Virus record (IMG/VR): IMGVR_UViG_3300002143_000079
Location: 1 to 64,000 of that record
Reading direction: 5' to 3' (one strand)
Source of the DNA: a virus
DNA length: 64,000 nt
The notes below the pieces were generated by a model. It was not told where the DNA came from. It saw nothing but the letters and a program-made list of their open reading frames with translations, and ran no database searches. Positions 48,056 through 64,000 of the stretch are shown piece by piece (the stretch's first letter is position 1; each line of letters opens with the position of its first letter). A program made the position numbers and the translations under genes.

Positions 48056-48439
48056 TGGTGGAGATGATGGAAGTTGAATCCATGTCTTCAATCGTTATAC
48101 CGTCAAAGCCTACATGTTTAGGATGTTTAAATTTTCGAGATTGTGTTCTGAACATACCAAACCACACAACCCTTATACTCAAGTTTTCTCGTTTGGTAAC
48201 CTAAGTCGAATTACCAAACACTCACGAAAAATTCGTTGAATAGACTATCGTGTGTCATCCATTCAACGGCACAACCTTTTATTAGGCTGCGACAGCAACT
48301 TCGTCCATTTCTGGAGTGAAGTCATAGGCGATTACGTTTTTTGCGTTTAATCTTTTTGATAGAAATTTTTAAGAGGCCAACTATCATCCTCTACATGCCT
48401 CGTACTTTATCTCAACTGAATCGAAACCAGTACATCCCC
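48056..48439 (-). ncRNA. ssrA: tmRNA (one-piece), tag AKNVIAYDFTPEMDEVAVAA
   Basis: 5' GGGGATG pairs with 3' CATCTCC-ACCA including G3:U; T-arm ATGGA-TTCAACT-TCCAT; resume codon TAAAC-GCA at 48344; tag ends AVAA-TAA-TAA; TTGACA-N16-TATAGT upstream. Confidence 0.93.
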
Positions 48440-52598: not shown

Positions 52599-52778
52599 TT
52601 ACCCCTCTACCTTCTCCATCTTTACTTCTTTGCCACCGGCCTCCTTGATGGCTTGGGCCAGTTGACAATCGGTGACGTGGCCATACTTCATACCATTGCC
52701 ACATATTGGGCATTGAGTCATTGACTCACCACGGATACTCCACTCAACTCGTAGCAACACATTAAGGATGTTTGTCAT
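52599..52778 (-). CDS. 59-aa Zn-finger-like protein, not in the ORF track
   Basis: CPICG....GH..DC; leaderless promoter TTGACA-N16-TACAGT-6nt-ATG. Confidence 0.6.
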   Translation of the reverse strand: MTNILNVLLRVEWSIRGESMTQCPICGNGMKYGHVTDCQLAQAIKEAGGKEVKMEKVEG

Positions 52779-52945
52779 GGTGTTACTGTATATTAAACCC
52801 GTTGAATGTCAATGGATTATATTAACTATTTACAACCTAACATCCATAGACATAGGGAGCAAACTCACCAGCTTCGGTATAGGTATGTTGTTCATGATAT
52901 AGGTTGTTACAATACTAGCAATTTATAGAAAGTCAACGGTTATTT

Positions 52946-53185
52946 TTACTTGCTTCGTTTTGCGAGATATTCAGCCATATCCATTGTAGTCCAATAACCA
53001 CCACCGGTTGGACCTACAAAAGCCCGTAGAGCTTGCTTTTTTGTCACTTTGATACCAGCAGCACATATTGCCAACCACATATCACGGTGCATGTCAGCGA
53101 ATCCAACCACGGTGGAAAGGTTGTAGTGATAGGAGTTTATACACTTTAGAGCATTGAATGCTTTTTGGTATTTCGTAGCTTTCAT
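52946..53185 (-). CDS. Early hypothetical protein
   Basis: Own leaderless promoter. Confidence 0.65.
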   Translation of the reverse strand: MKATKYQKAFNALKCINSYHYNLSTVVGFADMHRDMWLAICAAGIKVTKKQALRAFVGPTGGGYWTTMDMAEYLAKRSK

Positions 53186-53215
53186 AGTGTTAGAATATCT
53201 GAGTATTATAGAAAG

Positions 53216-53394
53216 TCAAGGGGTTTCGTTAACTTCATCAACCTCCATCACCGTCACGTTTCCATAGTGACCCTGACGAAACATCTCCCATGCTTCTTGC
53301 CGGTCAAGAGCTTGAATGGGTGCGGGATAGGTAGGATACACTTCCCATCCTCATTTCTCACAGTCACAGTGGCGGTAAATGTCTTTGTTTTCAT
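53216..53394 (-). pseudogene. Frameshifted paralog of 55014..55199
   Basis: VTVRNEDG in one frame; YPAPIQALDRQEAWEMF..GHYGNVTV in the -1 frame. Confidence 0.7.
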
Positions 53395-53425
53395 AACTCA
53401 AACAATACCAACCATTTATAAAAAG

Positions 53426-53641
53426 TCAAGTGGTTTTCATAGTTTTTTTGAACTCGAAAATCTCCATTTTCAATTTCACTACCGATTTTGAATCATATTT
53501 GCAATATCCTTTGCTGCAATCCTCCAAATAATTATCCAACGAATTTTCCAATTTTTCCAGTTGTTTTTCGGGAGATACAATCGCCGATGGTGTTGGCTGG
53601 CTAACACAATCTGCACCGGGAATGTGTCGAATTTTATACAT
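53426..53641 (-). CDS. Early hypothetical protein
   Basis: Own promoter. Confidence 0.55.
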   Translation of the reverse strand: MYKIRHIPGADCVSQPTPSAIVSPEKQLEKLENSLDNYLEDCSKGYCKYDSKSVVKLKMEIFEFKKTMKTT

Positions 53642-53694
53642 AATTATTTTGATATGAAGACAATACTAGCAATTTATAGAAAGTCAACCAGTTT

Positions 53695-54030
53695 TTATAC
53701 ATCTTCTGCACAACCATGTGAACCACAACAAGGACGAGGATTGCTATGGGGATTCATTTCTTCATCAAACGCACAGGTTTTACTGGTATAAACGTGACAA
53801 CAATGACATTTGTCAGTTCCATCATCAGAATCAACGGTTTCTTTCACAATCGACTCAACCTCATAAACCTCATTGGCTGAAACGATGATAACCACTCCAG
53901 CATCAAACTCCTTACATGGTTCGGTCAAGATAACGTGATAGGAATGAGAGTGAACCTCTGTAACTATACCGATTCCTTCTACACGACCATCCAACCGAAA
54001 CATTACGATGTCATTGAAATTTGCTTTCAT
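53695..54030 (-). CDS. Early protein with a Cys/His-rich C-terminus (paralog A)
   Basis: Highly similar to 54258..54593; own promoter. Confidence 0.75.
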   Translation of the reverse strand: MKANFNDIVMFRLDGRVEGIGIVTEVHSHSYHVILTEPCKEFDAGVVIIVSANEVYEVESIVKETVDSDDGTDKCHCCHVYTSKTCAFDEEMNPHSNPRPCCGSHGCAEDV

Positions 54031-54257
54031 TAGTGATAATTTATCAGAGTTTTATAGAAAGTCAACCATTGATTTAATAATTCCAATAGTTTACATCTTC
54101 CCACGTCAATTCGTTGGTGATAGCCATATCCGCAGTTGGATGTTGTTTGTTGTCATTCAACTCCCACAACCTATCTTTGGCTCTTTCGAGTGAGGCTGAC
54201 ACGTCAACCACCTCACAGGTTGATAGAAGATAGACACAATATGGACGTCCATTCATG

Positions 54258-54593
54258 TTACACGTCCTCCGCACAACCATGAGAGCCACAACAAGGACGT
54301 GGATTACTGTAGGGATTCATTTCCACATCAAACGAACACACGTCGTCCGTGTGAACGGAACAACAGTGACACTTGTTCGTATCGTCGTCTGACGAACCTG
54401 TTTCTTCTACAACCGCAGAGACTTCATAAATCTCGTTAGCTGAAACAATGATGATCACACCTGCGTCAAACTCCTTACATGGTTCAGTCAAGAGAACGTG
54501 ATAGGAGTGTGAATGGACTTCCGTCACTATACCAATTCCTTCCACACTCCCATCCAACCGAAACATTACCACATCATTAAAGTTTGCTTTCAT
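54258..54593 (-). CDS. Early protein with a Cys/His-rich C-terminus (paralog B)
   Basis: Highly similar to 53695..54030; own promoter. Confidence 0.75.
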   Translation of the reverse strand: MKANFNDVVMFRLDGSVEGIGIVTEVHSHSYHVLLTEPCKEFDAGVIIIVSANEIYEVSAVVEETGSSDDDTNKCHCCSVHTDDVCSFDVEMNPYSNPRPCCGSHGCAEDV

Positions 54594-54630
54594 GGGAAAA
54601 CTCTACGTTAAATTTATAGAAAGTCAACCA

Positions 54631-54996
54631 TTACTTGAGACTTTTCAACTCAGCCAAGAGACTTTCCAAATTTTCTTTACCCGACTCGATTTGTGCAATA
54701 AGTTTCCCTCGCTTTTGGTGAGTGGCTTTCAACGTGGTGAATTCAACTCCCAAGTCAATCGACGATTCATTTGTCAATGCAAACACTTGCGCGGGCCAAT
54801 ACCATTCCTCTCCACGAATAGAGATACCCGAAGAATTGATAGCTTGAATAACAAAAACAGTCTTGTTCTTCTTATGTTTTCTTGCCAAGGTTGACATATC
54901 CGCGTTGATAGAGTTATCAAACCCATCAAAGTATTCGTTCTTCTTGGGAACCCTAGTAAATACGACTTCATCTCCGACTTTTAGTTTTTTATTCAT
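54631..54996 (-). CDS. Early hypothetical protein (SH3-like N-terminus + coiled coil)
   Basis: LKVGDEV; downstream of 55014 ORF. Confidence 0.6.
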   Translation of the reverse strand: MNKKLKVGDEVVFTRVPKKNEYFDGFDNSINADMSTLARKHKKNKTVFVIQAINSSGISIRGEEWYWPAQVFALTNESSIDLGVEFTTLKATHQKRGKLIAQIESGKENLESLLAELKSLK

Positions 54997-55013
54997 AAAT
55001 CTAATTGAAAGTA

Positions 55014-55199
55014 TTAACCGTGAACTTCGACATTCAAAACCGTCACGTTACCGTAGAACTGACCGTAGTAGAAGATTTCCCACGCTTCCTGACGACTACG
55101 AGCTTCAACCGGTGCGGGGTGATTCACATGCATCACACCATCTTCATCACGAACGGTAACATCTGCGCGGTAGAATTCAGTGTCGTATTGTTTAGTCAT
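55014..55199 (-). CDS. Early hypothetical protein (start MTKQYD)
   Basis: Promoter places the start at 55199. Confidence 0.65.
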   Translation of the reverse strand: MTKQYDTEFYRADVTVRDEDGVMHVNHPAPVEARSRQEAWEIFYYGQFYGNVTVLNVEVHG

Positions 55200-55263
55200 G
55201 TGAATGAACTCTACTTGGTTATTATAAAATGTCAACGATTACTTGAACATTATTAATATTCAT

Positions 55264-55590
55264 TTAATTATTCACCAATGCGTGAACTCGGCACGAGTTG
55301 CATACGTGACCATCATTCTCTGGCTCCGGGCGACAGTCACATTGACCTTCACCGAACTGATCTTCCCAATCACTCAACAGACCTGCGGCGGCCTTTCTCA
55401 AGTCAGCCAGTTCCTTTTCCATGCGGTTGTAGTCAATCACCGTCTCGACAATACGAATGCCTTGCAACAGGTTACGTTTGTATGCGAGGGTTTCTGAGGT
55501 TGCGAAGATAACACCCTCGGCCTTCTTCAACTCACTCTGCAGTTGAGTCAAGACTTCTTCATTGGTTACGCCTTCGGAGATGATACACAT
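55264..55590 (-). CDS. Early hypothetical protein (start MCIISE)
   Basis: Leaderless promoter; CDC...C..C. Confidence 0.6.
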   Translation of the reverse strand: MCIISEGVTNEEVLTQLQSELKKAEGVIFATSETLAYKRNLLQGIRIVETVIDYNRMEKELADLRKAAAGLLSDWEDQFGEGQCDCRPEPENDGHVCNSCRVHALVNN

Positions 55591-55632
55591 ATGAGTCACG
55601 ATACCAAGGGTTTATAAAAAGTCAACAACCTT

Positions 55633-55980
55633 TTAACCTGAAATTTCCTGACACTCGGATATATCAAACTCCCTTGATGGCTTCTCTCCACCACACAACG
55701 TAAGAGTCAAATCCGAACTGTAATACCCGTTGTTAGAACCATAACCGGGAACCGCAACCGGATGACCATTGACGGGCTTCAATCGAATGCCGTAACCATC
55801 CACCTTTTCAAAGAAGTCGCCGTCAAGGTCAAACTCCATCCCCACGAAATCCGCAATGGTCAGATGTTCAAATGACAACCAGTGATGTTCACAACAATCT
55901 TGTCGGTGTTCAGAATAAAGAGATTGCCCATTGCTAAAACGAATGGAATCGTTGGAAACTTGTGATACAGTTACGTTCAT
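55633..55980 (-). CDS. Early phage protein (start MNVTVS)
   Basis: H.QDCCE and GSNNGYYS motifs; leaderless promoter. Confidence 0.7.
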   Translation of the reverse strand: MNVTVSQVSNDSIRFSNGQSLYSEHRQDCCEHHWLSFEHLTIADFVGMEFDLDGDFFEKVDGYGIRLKPVNGHPVAVPGYGSNNGYYSSDLTLTLCGGEKPSREFDISECQEISG

Positions 55981-56019
55981 ATGTGAGATATTATCGTAGG
56001 ATTTATAGGAAGTCAACAA

Positions 56020-56223
56020 TTATTCGTCACAATAGTCATCCGCCTCGTTTGCGTTGTAATCGGCCAAGTCATCCATTCCCGAACCATCACCCGACCATCC
56101 ACCACCATCATACGGTTCTTCGTCAATCTCCGTTCGTTCTTCGTAAGCCGATTCCAAGTGACTATCTTCAAAACCAAAGTCAGATTCTTCGGATTCGGTG
56201 GTAAGTTCAATTTCGTCGTTCAT
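56020..56223 (-). CDS. Extremely acidic early protein
   Basis: 26 D/E versus 1 R in 67 aa; own promoter. Confidence 0.65.
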   Translation of the reverse strand: MNDEIELTTESEESDFGFEDSHLESAYEERTEIDEEPYDGGGWSGDGSGMDDLADYNANEADDYCDE

Positions 56224-56262
56224 ATTGAAAATAGATTACCAAACATTTATAAAAAGTCAATA

Positions 56263-56418
56263 CCAAGATTTGCTAGGGTTTTCTCCCTATCATTTCATTA
56301 CCACTCGTCTTGGATTTCAACGAGTAGTCCCTGCTCACGTTCGGCGTTACTCCCTCACTAACAGGGTGATGGGAGTTTCCGTTCAGTTAGGACCGTCACG
56401 AGCGTTTCTTAGTTTCAT
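56263..56418 (-). ncRNA. Structured RNA element, copy 1, with leader ORF MKLRNARDGPN* (56418-56383)
   Basis: Three stems and a pseudoknot that covary with copy 2; dedicated promoter at 56452. Confidence 0.8.
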
Positions 56419-56455
56419 ATAATTAATTTACCAGTTATTATACAATTGTCAACAA

Positions 56456-56878
56456 TTAAGAAACCCTCTGAATACTTTTAACCGTCAGAGTTTTGTAGTT
56501 GATACCAGAAAGAATATCACCCAAATTTTGCAGCGGAATATCGCCGTCTTCACACTCCACGGAAATGGTGTATCTCACCTTGACGTTTTCTTTAACCATC
56601 GCATCAAGTTCTTTCTCGGTGAGAATTTTCCAGTCACCGGTCTTGGTGAACTTGCCAATTGTATGCAAGTCATGACCTGCAAATTGATTGATATGCACTG
56701 AACCATCCTTGTCCACTCGATGCCAATCAAAACCGCCGAGCTTGGGTGCGGCCAAAAGTGCGAGAAAGCCAGCACTATCGAAACCAACGTGTTTTCCAGT
56801 TTCATTAAACGAGTTTCGGTAACTGTTGGTGTTGACAACGATGATTGTTCCCTCGGTGATATATTGTTTGTGATTCAT
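56456..56878 (-). CDS. Early hypothetical protein
   Basis: Own leaderless promoter. Confidence 0.65.
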   Translation of the reverse strand: MNHKQYITEGTIIVVNTNSYRNSFNETGKHVGFDSAGFLALLAAPKLGGFDWHRVDKDGSVHINQFAGHDLHTIGKFTKTGDWKILTEKELDAMVKENVKVRYTISVECEDGDIPLQNLGDILSGINYKTLTVKSIQRVS

Positions 56879-56909
56879 ATTTGAGATAATATAGAAGTTT
56901 TTTAGAAAG

Positions 56910-57059
56910 TCAACAGTTTACAGAGCCAACATTGTCCACCAACTCAATTTTCCGATTCAATCGTTCATCTGGTGGAAGTTGCCAGAAGGGTAAACTCCAA
57001 TCCTCACGGAGTTTGAAAATGGCCTCGTTCAACGTGTCAAATTTCTCTTTGTTTGTCAT
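56910..57059 (-). CDS. 49-aa early protein (MTNKEKFDTL...), not in the ORF track
   Basis: TTGACA-N16-TAATAT-7nt-ATG. Confidence 0.55.
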   Translation of the reverse strand: MTNKEKFDTLNEAIFKLREDWSLPFWQLPPDERLNRKIELVDNVGSVNC

Positions 57060-57097
57060 GTGAGTGATATTATGTTAATTTTATAAAATGTCAACCA

Positions 57098-57628
57098 CTA
57101 TTGGTAGAGATAGTTTGTTTTTTTCGGTGGATTACCAATCACCGATTTGCATGTCCGACAGGTATAAATTACACCTTTTTCAATTTTGTTCTTGATTTTC
57201 GCCGTGACTTTGATGTGTCCAACACCACACCTACAATCCAACGCAAATTTCTTGAAAATCCGTTTCTTAACCGATGTAGTGTCGTAGGAATGACAACGGC
57301 CAATATCCGCAACTTCCAGATTACGCATCACACTCCGCCATTCAGGACCATGACCTTGTTTTGCGAAAGGATACACCTGAAAACAAACGAGGTGTGCGAC
57401 TTCGTGAGGAACCGTCCGGTTAAGAAAAGTTTCAATGTTCTGTGAATAAAGTGTGGGAGAGAAAGCCACTTTGTTACCGTAACGAAACGCCTTTCCCGCG
57501 ATGTTTCCCATATCACCAAACTCTATCGTGGGAATATCAAATACACGATTATATCGTTTTTGAGCCAGTAACAGGGTTTCGACTATTTTGTTTTCCAAAC
57601 GAGTGATAAGGTCTTTGGTCAAGTTCAT
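57098..57628 (-). CDS. SprT-like zinc metalloprotease
   Basis: AG.A, TVPHEVAHL, HG.EW..VM, C.C...Y.C..C. Confidence 0.88.
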   Translation of the reverse strand: MNLTKDLITRLENKIVETLLLAQKRYNRVFDIPTIEFGDMGNIAGKAFRYGNKVAFSPTLYSQNIETFLNRTVPHEVAHLVCFQVYPFAKQGHGPEWRSVMRNLEVADIGRCHSYDTTSVKKRIFKKFALDCRCGVGHIKVTAKIKNKIEKGVIYTCRTCKSVIGNPPKKTNYLYQ

Positions 57629-57681
57629 GACCAAAGACTATACCAGTTTTATAAAATGTCAACGATCTCGTTTATTTATTT

Positions 57682-58092
57682 TTAGTTTCCACCCATGTAT
57701 TGACCGAACTCATACACACTCATGGTTTCTGCTTGTTGGACCTTGCCTGGCTCAAGCCAGACAGTAATACAAAGCATGGCTCCATCTGTCTTGCCTGCCC
57801 AGATAAACGGATTGGGCACGTTTTCGAGATTCTTGCCTTGAAATTTGCTCTTCACAAAACGTCCACCACCACCCCATTGCAAAAAACCGGGTAGGTCAAC
57901 ACCGTGCATAATCACGTCTTGCAATGTTCCTTCAAACGTGCCCAATCGTGGTTCGTAGTGATGACCACCCATATCACAGTTTGGATCCTCACCCAAAACT
58001 TCCCATACATCGTATTCATTCAGACCATGATTTTCCAAGAGAGATTTGCCGGAGTAGGTGTTTTCGAGATACCTTTTATAGTTTGGAGTCAT
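57682..58092 (-). CDS. Early hypothetical protein
   Basis: GEDPNCD.GG.H..P.LG..EG; own promoter. Confidence 0.65.
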   Translation of the reverse strand: MTPNYKRYLENTYSGKSLLENHGLNEYDVWEVLGEDPNCDMGGHHYEPRLGTFEGTLQDVIMHGVDLPGFLQWGGGGRFVKSKFQGKNLENVPNPFIWAGKTDGAMLCITVWLEPGKVQQAETMSVYEFGQYMGGN

Positions 58093-58225
58093 AAGTTATT
58101 GACTAGATATTATACCAATATCATTTGTAGTCAATCAGAAACAGCAAACCTTTGCTATATTTTCTGATTTGGTTATCGGATGGATTGTCGGCCAGATTGC
58201 TGACTATCTTGACACCGTTGAATTG

Positions 58226-58405
58226 TCAAGGAATATACCAAACGGGAGCACCAATATTTGTATCATATTCCCCAACCACGGCTGATGTAGCATGACCTTG
58301 TTCTTTCAACTTCGCAACCCACTTCTCAACACGTTCTTTGGTAACGTGTTTGTCAAAGTAAATCAGTGCAGCGACTTCGGTGATGTTGATGGATGATTTA
58401 GGCAT
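58226..58405 (-). CDS. 59-aa hypothetical protein downstream of the hammerhead, not in the ORF track
   Basis: MPKSSINITEVAALIYFD...PVWYIP. Confidence 0.6.
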   Translation of the reverse strand: MPKSSINITEVAALIYFDKHVTKERVEKWVAKLKEQGHATSAVVGEYDTNIGAPVWYIP

Positions 58406-58458
58406 AATTTTGTTTTGTGCTGTGTTGAGGTTCTGCGAACTGCGGCTTTGGTGCCACT

Positions 58459-58513
58459 CGACTCGTCAGTGCTGGAGAAACCAGCAGACGCGGGAGAATC
58501 CCGCGTTTCGTCG
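58459..58513 (-). ncRNA. Type II hammerhead ribozyme
   Basis: CGAC-GAAAC-GCGGGA/UCCCGC-GUC^-UGCUGG/CCAGCA-CUGACGA-GUCG; full catalytic core; cleavage between 58487 and 58486. Confidence 0.93.
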
Positions 58514-58516
58514 TTC

Positions 58517-58780
58517 CTATTCTTCTACAATCGCAATGACGGACTTGAGCGCGTAGGTCAGACCACCTTCACTGCTCTCGATGCTGATTACATTTTTCCG
58601 TTGACCGTCAATCGTGATGACGAAGTTGATGGTGTCCGTGGTGGTAACCGACCATGTGATTGAACCACCGCAAATAAAGCCGGAGTAGCTTCCGTTCTTG
58701 GACTTCTTAACTTCGCTGATGTAGTTCGACAGCGATTGCTTAATACGTGCGTTGACTTCGGTATTTGGTTCTTTGTTCAT
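58517..58780 (-). CDS. Early hypothetical protein
   Basis: Own promoter; stop 3 nt before the hammerhead. Confidence 0.6.
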   Translation of the reverse strand: MNKEPNTEVNARIKQSLSNYISEVKKSKNGSYSGFICGGSITWSVTTTDTINFVITIDGQRKNVISIESSEGGLTYALKSVIAIVEE

Positions 58781-58813
58781 TGTGAAAAAAGACTACACCA
58801 AAACGATAAAATG

Positions 58814-59041
58814 TCAACTTACTTTCTCTAGTTTTTTCAAACTATTTTCCGCCTGTTGCATGGCCCAATCCAACTTCTCCCTTGGCACTTCATTTATATC
58901 CATAGCCACGGTATCTTCCACACTCCGTTTACCATTTTTACGACCATACATCATACGAAAGACAAACTGCCAACCCTCTGGCATCTTAACCAGATTCGTT
59001 CTAAGATACTCTCGTGCAGTTTCTTCCAAGATATGATTCAT
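58814..59041 (-). CDS. Early hypothetical protein
   Basis: Leaderless promoter; KLDWAMQQ. Confidence 0.65.
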   Translation of the reverse strand: MNHILEETAREYLRTNLVKMPEGWQFVFRMMYGRKNGKRSVEDTVAMDINEVPREKLDWAMQQAENSLKKLEKVS

Positions 59042-59070
59042 AAAACAAGATTATCAGAAAACATCAAACA

Positions 59071-59724
59071 GTCAATAATATTACCGGTGACCGTTATGTT
59101 GGTCAGACCAATCAACGAGTTGAAAAGAGATGGCAAGTTCATAAACGATGTAAACGAAATGCTCCCTTATACAATGCATTCCGAAAATATGGCCTTGACA
59201 ATTTTACATTCTCTATACTAGAAACAACGGATAACGATTTGTTACTTGATGAGTTGGAAATCAAACATATAGCCAATCAACGTTCTTTTAGAGATTGGAA
59301 TGAAGGTGGTTACAATCTCACAACCGGAGGATATGCCAATCGTGTAGTCAGTGCTGTTACACGACAAAAATTAAGAGAATCAACACGGCAATCATATCAA
59401 AATAATTCCAATAGAGGATTTCGTGTGGGAAATATTCCTTGGAACAAAGGATTGACTGGTTTAACTAAAGCCACACAAGTTGCGTGGAATAAGGGATTAA
59501 AAAATTGTCAAACCGCTTGGAATAAAGGTAAAACCTCGACTCAACAATATAACTTCTCAAATATCAAAACTCAAGAAGAATTTTGTGGCACTAAGAATGA
59601 ATTTGAATTGAAATTCAACGTGTCTAAATCAACTGTCAAACGAATATGTCAATCCAAACATTCTACTTGGATAGGAAAAAAAGTCCAGTGTCTTGACCCC
59701 GTTACACTGGAAAACGGACAATGA
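59071..59724 (+). pseudogene. 5'-truncated GIY-YIG homing endonuclease with NUMOD3-type (WNKG) repeats
   Basis: Open frame reads NNITGDRYVGQT...RW..H...LYNAFRKYG.DNF...GYNLT.GG but has no start codon or GIY motif. Confidence 0.75.
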
Positions 59725-59937
59725 TTAAGCACTCAGGGAGAGTGGTATAGGTCCAAATTGTATTTTGTTCGGTTACAAAAGGTGTTATAAAGCACCAAAA
59801 AACCACAACATTTAAGGGATAGTTGCCACCTGTCAAGTTTTTATTTAATGGACACTTCACTAACCCTGTTCTCCGCCGAGAAAAATCGTGAGGGTTTCAG
59901 GTTAACCCACAACCTTTAGTACGACTACCAAGAGAAA

Positions 59938-60147
59938 TTACATTGATTGATACGTTTCCGACTGTTGCCACATAGCATACCACTCTTCATGAGCTTCTGT
60001 CAACTCCGAAAGAGGAACGCCCTTGTGATAAATCTTCCCGTTGAAGATACCACCGATGTTTGCGGTCTTCTTGAACAAGGTAGTCACCCGTTGGTAACCA
60101 TCCTTGTATTTGACCACTGAACCTTTGACGATTGGGTTGTTATTCAT
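59938..60147 (-). CDS. Early hypothetical protein
   Basis: Own promoter; WQQSETYQSM. Confidence 0.65.
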   Translation of the reverse strand: MNNNPIVKGSVVKYKDGYQRVTTLFKKTANIGGIFNGKIYHKGVPLSELTEAHEEWYAMWQQSETYQSM

Positions 60148-60188
60148 TGTGGTAAGAGATTACTTGATTATTATCGAAACGTCAAGCC

Positions 60189-60470
60189 TTAGTTGGCTTC
60201 ATCTTCACTGTCTTCATTCTCATCTTCCACCACCGAATCTTGAGCCAATTCCACAACTGCGTCCAAGGGAGTGATTGCGGAAAAGGTTGTCACCCACTCA
60301 CAATCACGTTCAAGTCCCGGTTCCAAGTGAGCCAACGTCTTATACCGAAACATTTCATATTCCCGTGGCGTCATAGCACCACGGCAGATGTCCTTGAATT
60401 CGTTGAGTATCTCCATCATTTCATTGTGGAGTTCATTCAAACGGTTTGCGTCGTCCATGTTGATATTCAT
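60189..60470 (-). CDS. Acidic early hypothetical protein
   Basis: Own promoter. Confidence 0.65.
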   Translation of the reverse strand: MNINMDDANRLNELHNEMMEILNEFKDICRGAMTPREYEMFRYKTLAHLEPGLERDCEWVTTFSAITPLDAVVELAQDSVVEDENEDSEDEAN

Positions 60471-60515
60471 TGTGAAAATAGACTACCAAAAGTTGATAAA
60501 AAGTCAAGGGATTTG

Positions 60516-60752
60516 CCGAGATTTGCTGGGGTTTTCTCCCCATCATTTCATTACCACCCACCTCGGACTTCGGTGAATGGCCTCATCCTGTTCGGCCGTG
60601 CCCCCATTCCCTAGTAGAGTGGGCGGGGCTTCCGTTTAGTTCGGCCCGTCTCGTTCGGCTTCATAAACCCGGTTAGGGTAAAGAGTTACACCAAACTTTG
60701 CCGTGATGATTCGTTTCACACGAACGTTGATGTACTTAGGTAGGTCTTTCAT
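60516..60752 (-). ncRNA. Structured RNA element, copy 2, with a 38-aa leader ORF ending RDGPN* (60752-60636)
   Basis: Covaries with copy 1; dedicated promoter at 60788. Confidence 0.8.
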
Positions 60753-60795
60753 ATGGGAACATGTTATCAAAGATATTCAGGTTGTCAACAGGTTT

Positions 60796-60948
60796 TTATA
60801 CATCTTCTGCACAACCATGATGTCCACAGCAGGGACGAGGCTCACTATGTGGATTCATGTCCTTGTCAAAAGAACACTCACCATCGGTGCAAACGCCACA
60901 GATATGACAGCCCGGTTCATCGTCATCGGTGAATGATTTCTCAGGCAT
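60796..60948 (-). CDS. 50-aa stand-alone Cys/His-rich domain (paralog C), not in the ORF track
   Basis: CHICGVCTDGECSFDKDMNPHSEPRPCCGHHGCAEDV. Confidence 0.7.
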   Translation of the reverse strand: MPEKSFTDDDEPGCHICGVCTDGECSFDKDMNPHSEPRPCCGHHGCAEDV

Positions 60949-60960
60949 ATGTTTGAAAGG

Positions 60961-61155
60961 TTAGGCCGCAACAATCTCGCAGCCATACACAGACGGAAAG
61001 AATGCGCCATGCTCTGTGTAGATTCGTCCGGTGCTGGCGGAATGTTTTGGAGCGGCAAAGTCAGTCACCTTGCTATTGTCACCACGAAAATCTGTCACCG
61101 TGTCACCGATTTGAACTTCTTGCTTGGTCTTGAAGTTGATGAGCTTGTGTTTCAT
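60961..61155 (-). CDS. Early hypothetical protein
   Basis: GD.VTDFRG...P.H..STGRIY; own promoter. Confidence 0.65.
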   Translation of the reverse strand: MKHKLINFKTKQEVQIGDTVTDFRGDNSKVTDFAAPKHSASTGRIYTEHGAFFPSVYGCEIVAA

Positions 61156-61199
61156 ATGTAATGACTATACTTGATTTGTTTGGAATGTCAACGATTATT

Positions 61200-61403
61200 T
61201 TACAGTCGTTCAAATCCCGGCTTGAAGCATTTGCTGAAACATACTCGGCACATGAACACCGGCATCTTATGTTCTTTGCAGACGCCACAAGATTGATGAG
61301 CAAGTTGACCAGCATCAGGGCAGTTGCACCGCTCCAAGTCATCCTGTTCAGGCGCACGACCCGTTGCCGTTGTAAAATCTTCAATTGTCCAAGTAGCTTC
61401 CAT
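61200..61403 (-). CDS. Early Cys-rich protein
   Basis: DDLERCNC..AG...H..CG.C..H..P.F.C; own promoter. Confidence 0.65.
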   Translation of the reverse strand: MEATWTIEDFTTATGRAPEQDDLERCNCPDAGQLAHQSCGVCKEHKMPVFMCRVCFSKCFKPGFERL

Positions 61404-61409
61404 ATGCGA

Positions 61410-61685
61410 TTACTTTATCAGATTTTTATTGGTTGTCAATCCACTTCTTGCAGATATATCACCAAACTTTTTCTGGAAACCTTCAAAAATCAAATCACTT
61501 TCCTTTTCCCAATCGTTATCTGCTTTCAATCTATTGTAGATATACTTAGGATTAGAATAATCGGCATGAGCGATATTACGAGCGTGGTTATGACGTTGCC
61601 AACAAGCTGTTTGCGCTTCACCATGCATTTTTTTCAAATCACTTGGCCATCCAGCAATTTGTTTTGATTCTGAAACTGTTTTCAT
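61410..61685 (-). CDS. Early hypothetical protein
   Basis: ORF with -10-like box upstream. Confidence 0.5.
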   Translation of the reverse strand: MKTVSESKQIAGWPSDLKKMHGEAQTACWQRHNHARNIAHADYSNPKYIYNRLKADNDWEKESDLIFEGFQKKFGDISARSGLTTNKNLIK

Positions 61686-61780
61686 TGGATATAAATTACC
61701 AGAGATATTATATCAAAAAAATCATCTAATCACATGAAAATTATCACTTGACGAGATGATTCGTGCCACATCACATGGTT

Positions 61781-61918
61781 TTAGAATCCACCAAGGAATG
61801 TCAAGACCCATCTTGCATTACCGTCCTGCTTGACCTCAAAGGTCGCCGTTGAACCAGTGAAATCAATGAGGAACTTTGCCAGTTCGTTCAGGTCGTTGAA
61901 GTAGATTTTTCCGTTCAT
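61781..61918 (-). CDS. 45-aa early protein (MNGKIYFNDL...GGF), not in the ORF track
   Basis: TTGACA-N16-TATATT-6nt-ATG. Confidence 0.6.
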   Translation of the reverse strand: MNGKIYFNDLNELAKFLIDFTGSTATFEVKQDGNARWVLTFLGGF

Positions 61919-62053
61919 TGTGATAATATAGTAGAAATATCTAATTTGTCAACATTTGTTTATAGAAAGTAAAAATAATTGCATAGTAGCTACTGGTTAC
62001 GGCTCTTTTTCGCTATTCTCCACGGCTTAAATTGTGGACGCTATGCAAATTGG

Positions 62054-62284
62054 TTACTGGAGTGCTTGTATTGCACGTTGGAATGTCGTCCAACGGTTTC
62101 CGGGCAATCCACTCTTGTTCTGGAGGTCACGAACGGTGGAGTTCTCGTAACGGTCCATGAAAACCCCAAAGGTGATTTCCTCATCCCAAGAGGATTGGAG
62201 GTTTTTACGATTCCAACCATCGGGGTCAATAACTTCAACACCAAGAACCGCACACCAGACAGTAGAAGTCAGTTTGATTTTCAT
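62054..62284 (-). CDS. Early hypothetical protein
   Basis: IDPDGWNR...W.E.IT..F..R; own promoter. Confidence 0.65.
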   Translation of the reverse strand: MKIKLTSTVWCAVLGVEVIDPDGWNRKNLQSSWDEEITFGVFMDRYENSTVRDLQNKSGLPGNRWTTFQRAIQALQ

Positions 62285-62315
62285 ACTTAATAGACTACTA
62301 TTGTTTTATAAAATG

Positions 62316-62567
62316 TCAACCCACAATCGTCGAGTGAACAAAGATTTGTTCCAATTTCTTCATGGCTTTCTTTTTGTCATACTCATGACCGATGAAATGA
62401 CACGTATCACCAATCCCCGTATAGATTCTCCATGCGTTTTTGTCAGTCGAAGAATCATTTGGTTTGGTTATGAATCCACTTTCATCACCAAAGATACTGA
62501 TAACAAACAGGTTTGGAATGCTGCTAGTTTTGTTGGTGACTCGTTTCCAAGTAATCATTGGTTTCAT
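62316..62567 (-). CDS. Early hypothetical protein
   Basis: Own leaderless promoter. Confidence 0.6.
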   Translation of the reverse strand: MKPMITWKRVTNKTSSIPNLFVISIFGDESGFITKPNDSSTDKNAWRIYTGIGDTCHFIGHEYDKKKAMKKLEQIFVHSTIVG

Positions 62568-62598
62568 TGGAAATAGATTACTGGATATTTATAAAAAG

Positions 62599-62775
62599 TC
62601 AACGACTTTCGTACGTGTGGAGAAAAATAATGGTCCATGCAATCATGAGCACCACTATCAATCCAAAATTGGCAAGACTAAACTTCTTGGTATCGAAGTC
62701 ATAGATTGGATACCCAAACATTGAAGCAAGGGCACCAATGACGAATGCGCCGATAAGAAAGGCTTGGTGTGTCAT
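62599..62775 (-). CDS. 58-aa two-TM early membrane protein, not in the ORF track
   Basis: MTHQAFLIGAFVIGALASMFG...FGLIVVLMIAWTIIF; own promoter. Confidence 0.6.
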   Translation of the reverse strand: MTHQAFLIGAFVIGALASMFGYPIYDFDTKKFSLANFGLIVVLMIAWTIIFLHTYESR

Positions 62776-62814
62776 GGGTTTTAGAGTATGTCAGTTATTA
62801 TCGAATGTCAACAA

Positions 62815-63018
62815 TTAATTCTTTTCTTCCAAGATGGCTTCAAGTGTGCGTGCGAAATACACTTCCCCGGTTTCGATGCCCGCATAGTAGGCATCGTCAA
62901 TGTTACCACCCGCCGCATCATCGGGTAGAAAATCCTCACGGTCTGGACCAACCTTTTTTGCAGCGGTTTCGGTGATGAGGGCGACAATCTTCGCCAACTT
63001 TTCGTTTGAAATAAGCAT
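62815..63018 (-). CDS. Early hypothetical protein
   Basis: GGNIDDAYYAG...GE...AR. Confidence 0.65.
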   Translation of the reverse strand: MLISNEKLAKIVALITETAAKKVGPDREDFLPDDAAGGNIDDAYYAGIETGEVYFARTLEAILEEKN

Positions 63019-63023
63019 AAATT

Positions 63024-63611
63024 TTAACGGTTAACCAACGAGTAAACCACACTCGGCTTACCCCGACCCGAATCAGTCTTGACTCGAGCAACTTCGACGA
63101 GCACACCACCCTCCATTTCCTTTTTGATATGGTTGTAGATGAGTGCGGGATTCCAACCAACACTGTTCACCAAGGCCAAGTCTTTCATGGTGAATCGCTC
63201 GGTAGCAGGATAGACCAACTCAGGCCTTTCATTACGAGCCCGACCAACCAGACGGGGTGCAACTTCCGTTTCATCACCATCATCGCTTGTATCCACCGTG
63301 GCGACTTTGCCTTCAACCAATTCCTGATACTTCACCATTGCGGCACCCAATCGGAGGAAACTCCATGCAGTGCGACCAAACTTCTCATTCGAGGGATACT
63401 GTTCGGTATCGTCCTCCAAGGTCTGCTTGAAGATTTGATGACCCTTCTTTAAGAGTTTGATACGAAACACTTCGTGATCCTTCAAGGTGCCATCCTCACG
63501 ATGACGAGCATAGAGAGCCACCGTCTCGGTGCGAGTAACCTGTTTGTAGGTCAGAGGATTGGCACTGTAACCACCAGCACCACTAACGAATTCCGTTTCA
63601 AGTGAAATCAT
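63024..63611 (-). CDS. Early protein, possible C-terminal winged-helix
   Basis: Own promoter; GRGKPSVVY wing-like motif. Confidence 0.6.
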   Translation of the reverse strand: MISLETEFVSGAGGYSANPLTYKQVTRTETVALYARHREDGTLKDHEVFRIKLLKKGHQIFKQTLEDDTEQYPSNEKFGRTAWSFLRLGAAMVKYQELVEGKVATVDTSDDGDETEVAPRLVGRARNERPELVYPATERFTMKDLALVNSVGWNPALIYNHIKKEMEGGVLVEVARVKTDSGRGKPSVVYSLVNR

Positions 63612-63653
63612 GTGAGTAGATTACCAGTGGTTTATAAAAAGTCAATAGACCAT

Positions 63654-63941
63654 TTACTTTTTGTTCAACTTTTTATGAGCCGCAACCAGTGCCTTGAGAA
63701 CGGTGATAGGAAACGTCTGACAACCAACTTTGACGGTATCCTTGGAAACAATCGCGGTGTATGAATCATTCAAGACCACTTCCACCGAATCACCATTTTT
63801 CAAATAATCCTTGAGATTGGAGACTTCAGCGAGGCTGAATTCCTTTCTATCTTGCAATGTGCGCCTACCGGAGATAACATTGACGTCAAAAATGACGTAA
63901 GGATATGCCGAAACTCCATTTCCCTCCATGGTTTCAGTCAA
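63654..63941 (-). CDS. Hypothetical protein, probably 5'-partial at the window edge
   Basis: LNDSYTA.V....VKVGCQTF. Confidence 0.55.
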   Translation of the reverse strand: MTETMEGNGVSAYPYVIFDVNVISGRRTLQDRKEFSLAEVSNLKDYLKNGDSVEVVLNDSYTAIVSKDTVKVGCQTFPITVLKALVAAHKKLNKK

Positions 63942-64000
63942 TGCCTTTGGGCCAATGGGGATACCAGTTAGATTGGAAAGGATGGTGAGTGCAGCCAGTT

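Follow-up and report, generated by a model that had tools for sequence, protein, structure and literature searches.

A duplicated early cassette of a T4-like phage has a leaderless mini-ORF followed by a very probably functional RNA motif new to databases

The early region of an uncultured T4-like phage carries, twice and on the minus strand, a cassette in which a leaderless mini-ORF is followed by a folded RNA of roughly 120 bases. We describe this RNA motif as new to databases and very probably functional. Copy 1 (positions 56263-56418, about 160 nt with its ORF) and copy 2 (60516-60752) are 84% identical over about 150 alignment columns. The substitutions that separate the two copies show a genuine RNA structure maintained by selection, and the C-terminal pentapeptide of the ORF is conserved together with its stop codon. 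We tentatively interpret each copy of the cassette as a self-contained RNA switch that is coupled to translation. All comparisons below draw on two paralogous copies from a single uncultured phage lineage.

The window, by which we mean the whole 64,000-nt stretch of DNA that was analysed, belongs to an 80,335-bp IMG/VR contig with a CheckV completeness of 23%. Its gene content (a gp23-type major head protein, portal, baseplate wedge, and SbcCD-like genes) is that of a T4-like myovirus, and the nearest cultured relatives, Microcystis phage Mel-JY01 and the Flavobacterium immuto phages, are about 52% identical to it in the capsid protein. The early region forms the right arm, at about 52.6-64 kb on the minus strand, and is built from small cassettes that follow one pattern, TTGAC(A/T)-N16-TAnnnT and then an ATG about 6 nt past the -10 box. 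Given this position of the ATG, the early mRNAs are leaderless. A Shine-Dalgarno sequence was absent before every gene checked in the window, namely, those of the early region (52600-64000, minus strand) and all late genes, and leaderless or Shine-Dalgarno-independent translation is therefore the norm in this phage. The sequences upstream of the late genes are AT-rich and TATTTATA-like.

Several other features of this genome are of interest. A phage one-piece tmRNA, not called by ARAGORN, was found by Rfam (Table 1). Its 20-aa tag starts with AKNVI and ends with VAVAA and a double stop, a style that resembles cyanobacterial tags and that may hint at the host. Cassettes are being duplicated in the early arm, as two paralogous 111-aa examples show. 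An early 176-aa protein (57098-57628, minus strand) contains a SprT-like metalloprotease domain (PF10263, E=4e-16). On the plus strand within the same arm lies a 161-aa ORF (59239-59724) with no Pfam match, which could belong to a mobile element, for instance as a homing nuclease gene; roughly 200 nt of noncoding DNA (59725-59937) adjoin it.

Table 1. Positions, in the window, of the parts of the two cassette copies and of other features discussed in the text
Feature	Position	Strand	Details
Phage one-piece tmRNA	48056-48439	minus	136.5 bits (Rfam); behind its own TTGACA promoter
Paralogous 111-aa cassettes	53695-54030 and 54258-54593	minus	both begin MKANFND
Type II hammerhead-like sequence, complete core	58456-58511	minus	Hammerhead_II 27.6 bits, E=0.017; below the Rfam Hammerhead_II gathering score of 37
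Copy 1 promoter	56425-56452	minus	TTGACA-16-TAAATT, TG before the -10 box
Copy 1 leaderless mini-ORF	56383-56418	minus	11 aa, MKLRNARDGPN-stop
Copy 1 conserved peptide end	56383-56400	minus	R-D-G-P-N-TGA
Copy 1 invariant ACGGAA	56377-56382	minus	
Copy 1 hairpin A	56349-56376	minus	ACUCC(C) with (G)GGAGU, variable loop
Copy 1 invariant GCCGAAC	56339-56345	minus	
Copy 1 variable junction	56329-56338	minus	3' of GCCGAAC
Copy 1 stem B	56300-56328	minus	10 bp, ACUACUCGUU with GACGAGUGGU
Copy 1 loop B	56310-56318	minus	9 nt, GAAAUCCAA
Copy 1 invariant linker	56290-56299	minus	AAUGAAAUGA, holds AUG-AAA-UGA
Copy 1 hairpin C	56274-56289	minus	UAGGG-AGAAAA-CCCUA
Copy 1 3' tail	56263-56273	minus	GCAAAUCUUGG; UUGG at 56263-56266
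Next cassette's -35 box past copy 1	begins at 56260	minus	
Copy 2 promoter	60761-60788	minus	TTGACA-16-TAACAT, TG before the -10 box
Copy 2 leaderless ORF	60636-60752	minus	38 aa
Copy 2 conserved peptide end	60636-60653	minus	R-D-G-P-N-TAA
Copy 2 ACGGAA	60630-60635	minus	
Copy 2 hairpin A	60600-60629	minus	GCCCC with GGGGC
Copy 2 GCCGAAC, then variable junction	60582-60596	minus	GCCGAAC at 60590-60596
Copy 2 stem B	60553-60581	minus	10 bp, GCCAUUCACC with GGUGGGUGGU
Copy 2 loop B	60563-60571	minus	GAAGUCCGA
Copy 2 invariant linker	60543-60552	minus	AAUGAAAUGA
Copy 2 hairpin C	60527-60542	minus	UGGGG-AGAAAA-CCCCA
Copy 2 3' tail	60516-60526	minus	GCAAAUCUCGG, holds UCGG
Next -35 box past copy 2	60507	minus	

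An initial annotation of this DNA had described two diverged copies, each behind its own early promoter and each ending just before the next promoter. Both statements are borne out on the minus strand. In each copy the ATG lies 6 nt past the -10 box, as in other early cassettes, and the -35 box of the following promoter comes directly after the end of the element. About 40 nt downstream, the next gene is served by a promoter of its own. The genes downstream of the two copies are acidic ORFans that are unrelated to each other, and the proteins flanking both copies are ORFans in searches of billions of proteins. No sense-strand terminator was called in either copy by a terminator scan, in which a GC-rich hairpin followed by a U run was the criterion. 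Transcription should run into the next cassette, and that the RNA is itself the product of the cassette is a hypothesis.

The two ORFs, of 11 and 38 aa, are unrelated except for the C-terminal R-D-G-P-N-stop. Homology between the copies starts exactly at the Arg codon, and there are no indels from that point to hairpin A; the spacing between peptide and RNA is thus fixed. Within the 18 nt encoding RDGPN and the stop, all four nucleotide differences are synonymous, the change from TGA to TAA included, which agrees with the silent differences reported in the initial annotation. Since 12 of the 54 possible single changes in these 18 nt are synonymous, the probability of this outcome is about 0.0024, a value based on only four substitutions. 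Apart from the CGG:CCG pairing described below, this 5' block has no conserved pairing partner, which favors coding as the reason for its conservation. No relative of the 38-aa peptide was found among 1.8 billion representative proteins. The substitutions point to selection on the peptide and to selection on the RNA as independent lines of evidence, linked by the fixed spacing.

The end of the peptide had been likened to the RAGP arrest motif of SecM. The Arg of RAPP-like arrest cores cannot be replaced, a change from Ala to Asp is only partly permissive in ApdA and ApdP, and RAGP, with Gly at position 3, supports arrest (PMC12992588). RAPP-like motifs are located near the C terminus of small ORFs, according to three reports (PMC12992588, PMC10951233, PMC10951299). 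Like SecM, ApdA, ApdP, and ApcA, the cassette has a small ORF whose C-terminal R-x-[G/P]-P lies within a few codons of the stop; this is true of both ORFs, and the Arg is the first residue conserved between them. The variable N terminus is also shared with RAPP/RAGP arrest peptides, as is a downstream RNA that could be refolded by a stalled ribosome. Unlike those peptides, in which the second core residue is Ala or Gly, the cassette has Asp at position 2, its chain is very short in copy 1, and its mRNA is leaderless. RAPP-type peptides regulate Sec/YidC genes, whereas neither cassette is followed by a Sec/YidC-type gene or by a sequestered start that a stalled ribosome would unmask. The downstream RNA differs as well, being a complex conserved fold and not a simple hairpin. 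The likeness of RDGP to the RAGP of SecM has some literature backing, and RDGP could plausibly serve as a weak arrest core. Elsewhere in the 80-kb contig, R-x-[G/P]-P occurs 0 times in frame with mapped genes, against about 3 to 4 occurrences expected from a rough estimate, which makes this a weak observation.

The codons around the stop also raise the question of recoding, either by a bypass like that of T4 gene 60 (CCN-AAC-stop, hairpin A, second CCG-AAC) or by stop readthrough. As in gene 60, a codon and a stop are followed by a hairpin and by a matching codon about 45 to 50 nt downstream; here AAC-stop and the second AAC are separated by 44 and 46 nt with a hairpin between them, and in copy 2 the frame past the stop stays open for 30 codons. 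In contrast to gene 60, where the hairpin surrounds the take-off codon and the stop, the hairpin here lies past both and does not include the take-off codon. No conserved frame resumes at the landing codon: from the second AAC onward, the two copies are read in frames that differ and that encode unrelated peptides of 21 and 12 aa. Copy 1 also has four in-frame stops past the first stop, and neither UGA-A nor UAA-A is, to our knowledge, a leaky context, which counts against recoding. Bypass and readthrough were rejected on account of the different frames and the four stops, and we regard a recoding signal as extremely unlikely.

RNAalifold, applied to the two copies, gave three stems comprising 20 pairs (40 nt). 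The parts proposed in the initial annotation are all present: ACGGAA, hairpin A (five pairs, two of them compensatory), and GCCGAAC; stem B, whose 10 bp are fully paired in both copies despite differing sequence (two double and five single compatible changes); the linker AAUGAAAUGA, identical in the two copies; and hairpin C (five pairs, one compensatory). The stems carry 15 substitutions, every one a transition, and none of these disrupts any of the 20 pairs; the remainder of the alignment has 11 transitions and 10 transversions (Fisher p=0.0018 for the comparison with the stems). When 15 substitutions were placed at random with the share of transitions found outside the stems, all pairs were kept in 4 of 1,000,000 trials; with transitions only, this occurred in 0.5% of trials. 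On the plus strand, stem B retains only 8 of 10 and 7 of 10 pairs, the G-U pairs being turned into mismatches. The fold therefore belongs to the sense RNA, and the assignment to the minus strand, which had been argued from the same G-U pairs, is upheld.

These data also bear on whether the element has any function of its own. It could be a remnant of a duplicated cassette or merely an antisense terminator, given that cassette duplication is common here, as in the 111-aa paralogs, and that the terminator scan flags both copies on the plus strand, where hairpin C and UCAUUUCAUU form a weak terminator. Under neutral drift, however, one would not expect all 20 pairs to survive 15 substitutions or transversions to be barred from the stems only. 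An antisense terminator would span just 26 of about 140 nt and leaves stem B, which loses pairs on the plus strand, unexplained; the only plus-strand ORF examined, 59239-59724, lies upstream of copy 2, and no convincing plus-strand gene was apparent upstream of copy 1. We consider an absence of function very unlikely. Separately, an antisense ORF across the element was rejected because it is not conserved, and sarcin-ricin (E-loop) and k-turn readings of the base of hairpin A were set aside upon inspection, each holding in one copy only.

Between the covarying stems there are about 70 nt of invariant single-stranded sequence. The blocks ACGGAA, GCCGAAC, AAUGAAAUGA, the loop AGAAAA, and AGCAAAUCU are invariant. 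The substitutions cluster in the stems, in the loop of hairpin A, and in the junction before stem B; in loop B (GAARUCCRA), two of nine positions differ between the copies. Covarying stems with frozen junctions are a pattern typical of RNAs selected for a three-dimensional fold or for a binding partner.

One potential explanation for this pattern is a stand-alone structured noncoding RNA that is the functional product. In trans, it might be a decoy for a protein or for the ribosome, counteract defence, or work as a small RNA; in cis, it might act on RNA polymerase in the manner of the HK022 put RNAs. The ORF would then be only the translated leaderless 5' end or incidental. The long invariant single strands are a signature of partner-binding RNAs, and the 11-aa product of copy 1 has no meaningful size for a protein. 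In phage HK022, putL and putR are likewise two diverged, structurally conserved copies per genome, located shortly past early promoters. The put antitermination RNAs consist of two simple stem-loops without an ORF; here, unlike in HK022, the RNA comes after a translated mini-ORF, and no such element is present behind about 28 further early promoters. The AUG-AAA-UGA in the linker resembles the leaderless gene starts of this phage (A-AUG-AA) and could be a decoy start or a minigene, for which the two-codon bar minigenes of lambda are a parallel. This explanation leaves the purely silent changes in RDGPN-stop and the exact position of the leaderless ATG unaccounted for; the RNA also has no terminator or defined 3' end, and no complementary target was identified. 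A stand-alone RNA is possible but, in our view, on balance doubtful.

The 3' tail has two potential partners. Loop B (CCAA in copy 1, CCGA in copy 2) can pair with UUGG or UCGG of the tail, with one compensatory pair between the copies, and two further pairs could form at the cost of stem B. RNAalifold prefers a nested alternative, kept in both copies, in which GCCGA pairs with UUGGU or UCGGC; between the copies, G-U is replaced by G-C twice in this helix (GCCGA:UYGGY). The covarying pseudoknot of the initial annotation is thus sustained as to its one compensatory pair, but the nested helix fits equally well, and with two sequences to compare we regard the pseudoknot as possible. In addition, CGG of ACGGAA can pair with CCG of GCCGAAC to form a basal helix under hairpin A; both blocks are invariant, which makes covariation in this helix impossible. 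The mutual exclusivity of these pairings suggests a switch.

If the pseudoknot forms, the 3' half of the element would have the topology of the preQ1-II riboswitch, an H-type pseudoknot with an embedded hairpin: stem B, a hairpin set into the long loop, and a tail at the 3' end that base-pairs back to the loop of the stem. This order, together with the invariant junction nucleotides, is what a ligand-sensing, riboswitch-like aptamer would offer. Unlike preQ1-II, to which it has no sequence or covariance-model similarity, the element has an extra 5' domain (ACGGAA, hairpin A, and GCCGAAC), and its 3' strand contains no Shine-Dalgarno sequence or start codon. There is no Rfam riboswitch match and no expression platform (a Shine-Dalgarno sequence, start codon, or terminator under control of the fold), and the neighboring genes are ORFans without a metabolic link. 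An aptamer therefore appears quite unlikely.

Searches for known families covered the 4227 models of Rfam 15, including riboswitches, ribozymes, RAGATH, and cyanophage motifs. At the gathering score, the tmRNA was the only match in the whole window. At E<=10, searches of 5.3 kb and of 211-nt and 291-nt slices around the copies returned only noise, none of it on the sense strand of the element; the earlier statement that it matches no known riboswitch or ribozyme is confirmed at this level. The glutamine-I and -II models were tried because of ACGGAA and the possible cyanobacterial host. At E<=10, the glutamine riboswitch (RF01739) matched nowhere in the 80-kb genome, and the glutamine-II/Downstream-peptide model (RF01704) gave only weak matches off the element, at 63659-63711 on the plus strand and 63908-63944 on the minus strand.

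A covariance model (R1) was built from the two copies, as the initial annotation had proposed; beyond copies 1 and 2 it found no homolog. On the phage's own 80-kb contig it recovered copies 1 and 2 only, on 46 related IMG/VR contigs it found nothing, and on Microcystis phage Mel-JY01, the huge phage LR756508, and Flavobacterium phage immuto it returned only noise. IMG/VR scans with exact or degenerate patterns from different conserved blocks revealed no true homolog: two gave 23 and 31 matches and the others none; the 23 were chance matches, and none of the 31 loci scored better than E=0.4 with the covariance model. A pattern scan of GTDB genomes gave at least 120 matches, 0 of them with stem B and hairpin C, and blastn against INPHARED and PLSDB gave chance-level matches or none. 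The 49 matches of a metagenome pattern scan were all chance or coding, and a 36-nt class among them is explained by a small Zn-ribbon gene family with the motif CGNEMIMCLNEANLTCSKCG. This family has a 16-mer and a 10-mer in common with the invariant linker and tail of the element, an overlap that we judge to be coincidence (chance roughly 0.1 after multiple testing); its loci on metagenome contigs (L093, L108-L110, L112, L116, L120, and L134) are without stem B or hairpin C.

Near-identical DNA was found in 18 runs from seven studies of aquatic and marine metagenomes, none of them recorded as RNA. One of these runs, X1, holds a 65-kb contig of a near-identical strain at a depth of 132 and appears to stem from a sample in which this phage was abundant. 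In contigs from four runs the copies are unaltered except for a 3-nt insertion in copy 2 of the strain in run X5, which falls in the variable junction (60584-60588, AGGAUGAGG to AUGCGAUUGAGG) and leaves the stems and invariant blocks as they are. A neighboring protein, P0011, encoded on an 82,872-bp contig, was found at 92% identity, which indicates that slightly diverged strains exist; a related-locus search with P0011 found nothing. The X1 contig also has 1138 other letters in place of a 272-nt stretch (window 57854-58127), an indel polymorphism inside or adjoining a 136-aa gene (57682-58092).

Between copies 1 and 2 lies a sequence resembling a type II hammerhead (Table 1), with the core CUGACGA, GAAA, and GUC, closed stems I and III, and an open 4-bp helix as stem II. 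It sits directly past the stop of the gene at 58517-58780, and downstream of it is a 59-aa ORF (58226-58405) without a promoter. Given this location, RNA processing appears to be used in the region. The element might accordingly punctuate early polycistronic transcripts, either as a new self-cleaving ribozyme or as the target of a phage or host endoribonuclease, which might cut the invariant linker or the GGAG of hairpin C. Both the hammerhead-like sequence, which precedes a promoterless gene, and the element are small structured RNAs located right past a stop in an early transcription unit. The element's end coincides exactly with the next cassette, and its conserved junctions and possible pseudoknot are ribozyme-like. 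In contrast, the hammerhead core is absent from both copies, whose CUGAACG (copy 1) and CUAAACG (copy 2) depart from the required CUGANGA, and the short slices gave no Rfam hammerhead, twister, twister-sister, pistol, hatchet, or HDV-like match at E<=10. By inspection, the order of strands does not suit an HDV-like or pistol topology, and processing leaves the conserved peptide unexplained. We consider a processing element unlikely.

The translation-coupled switch that we tentatively prefer starts from features seen directly in both copies, namely, the promoters, the leaderless ATG, the peptide and its spacing, the stems, the two partners of the tail, and the sense strand. We favor it because the promoter geometry and the placement of the ATG match those of neighboring real genes, because RDGPN-stop is the only part common to two unrelated ORFs and all four of its changes are synonymous, and because the tail pairs with loop B or GCCGA in both copies. 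Transcription from the cassette's own promoter would yield a leaderless mRNA, and a 70S ribosome would translate the mini-ORF, the sole conserved part of which is the RAPP/RAGP-like core R-D-G-P-N-stop. The ribosome would then either pause when Gly is in the P site and Pro has entered the A site or terminate slowly two codons on. A paused ribosome covers mRNA to about +13 to +15 nt. It would thus bury the stop codon and ACGGAA and, if positioned at the stop codon, also the 5' arm of hairpin A. The CGG of a buried ACGGAA could not pair with the CCG of GCCGAAC, and the freed GCCGA would compete with loop B (CCRA) for UYGG of the tail. Occupancy by the ribosome may in this way decide which of two folds the 3' domain (stem B, linker, hairpin C, and tail) adopts, and this fold would in turn determine what becomes of the readthrough transcript of the next cassette, by processing, stability, or ribosome loading. 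Pausing, switching, and output are the parts that we infer.

Several points count against the switch. The comparison comprises only two copies from one lineage, and the pattern of silent changes only four substitutions. The combination of Asp and Gly in RDGP may be too weak for arrest, and at the putative pause the nascent chain of copy 1 has only 9 to 10 residues. The weakest point is the output: none is visible, there being neither a terminator nor a sequestered start site, and the next gene is transcribed from its own promoter. The proteins downstream of the two copies are unrelated, and neither copy precedes a Sec/YidC gene of the kind that known RAPP-type peptides regulate. Finally, the long invariant blocks (the linker, loop C, and AGCAAAUCU) look more like a ligand-binding, protein-binding, or catalytic core than like a mere switch.

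A bolder form of coupling, which we hold to be rather improbable, is a new class of phage RNA device without an Rfam relative, in which a leaderless arrest mini-ORF parks the ribosome on a pseudoknotted RNA and the RNA is the effector. The effector could be a ribosome-trapping or tRNA-depleting RNA through AUG-AAA-UGA, a translation-triggered ribozyme, or an anti-defence decoy.

The general importance of these results is limited by what the sequences comprise, two paralogs from one uncultured phage lineage. If the coupling is real, arrest-peptide-type modules would for the first time be known from a phage early region and from a leaderless mRNA, and this one would be joined to an RNA fold unknown to Rfam. 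The cassette would then add to a picture of a phage that shapes its early transcripts at the RNA level, alongside the hammerhead candidate, the tmRNA, and the leaderless cassettes of the same arm.
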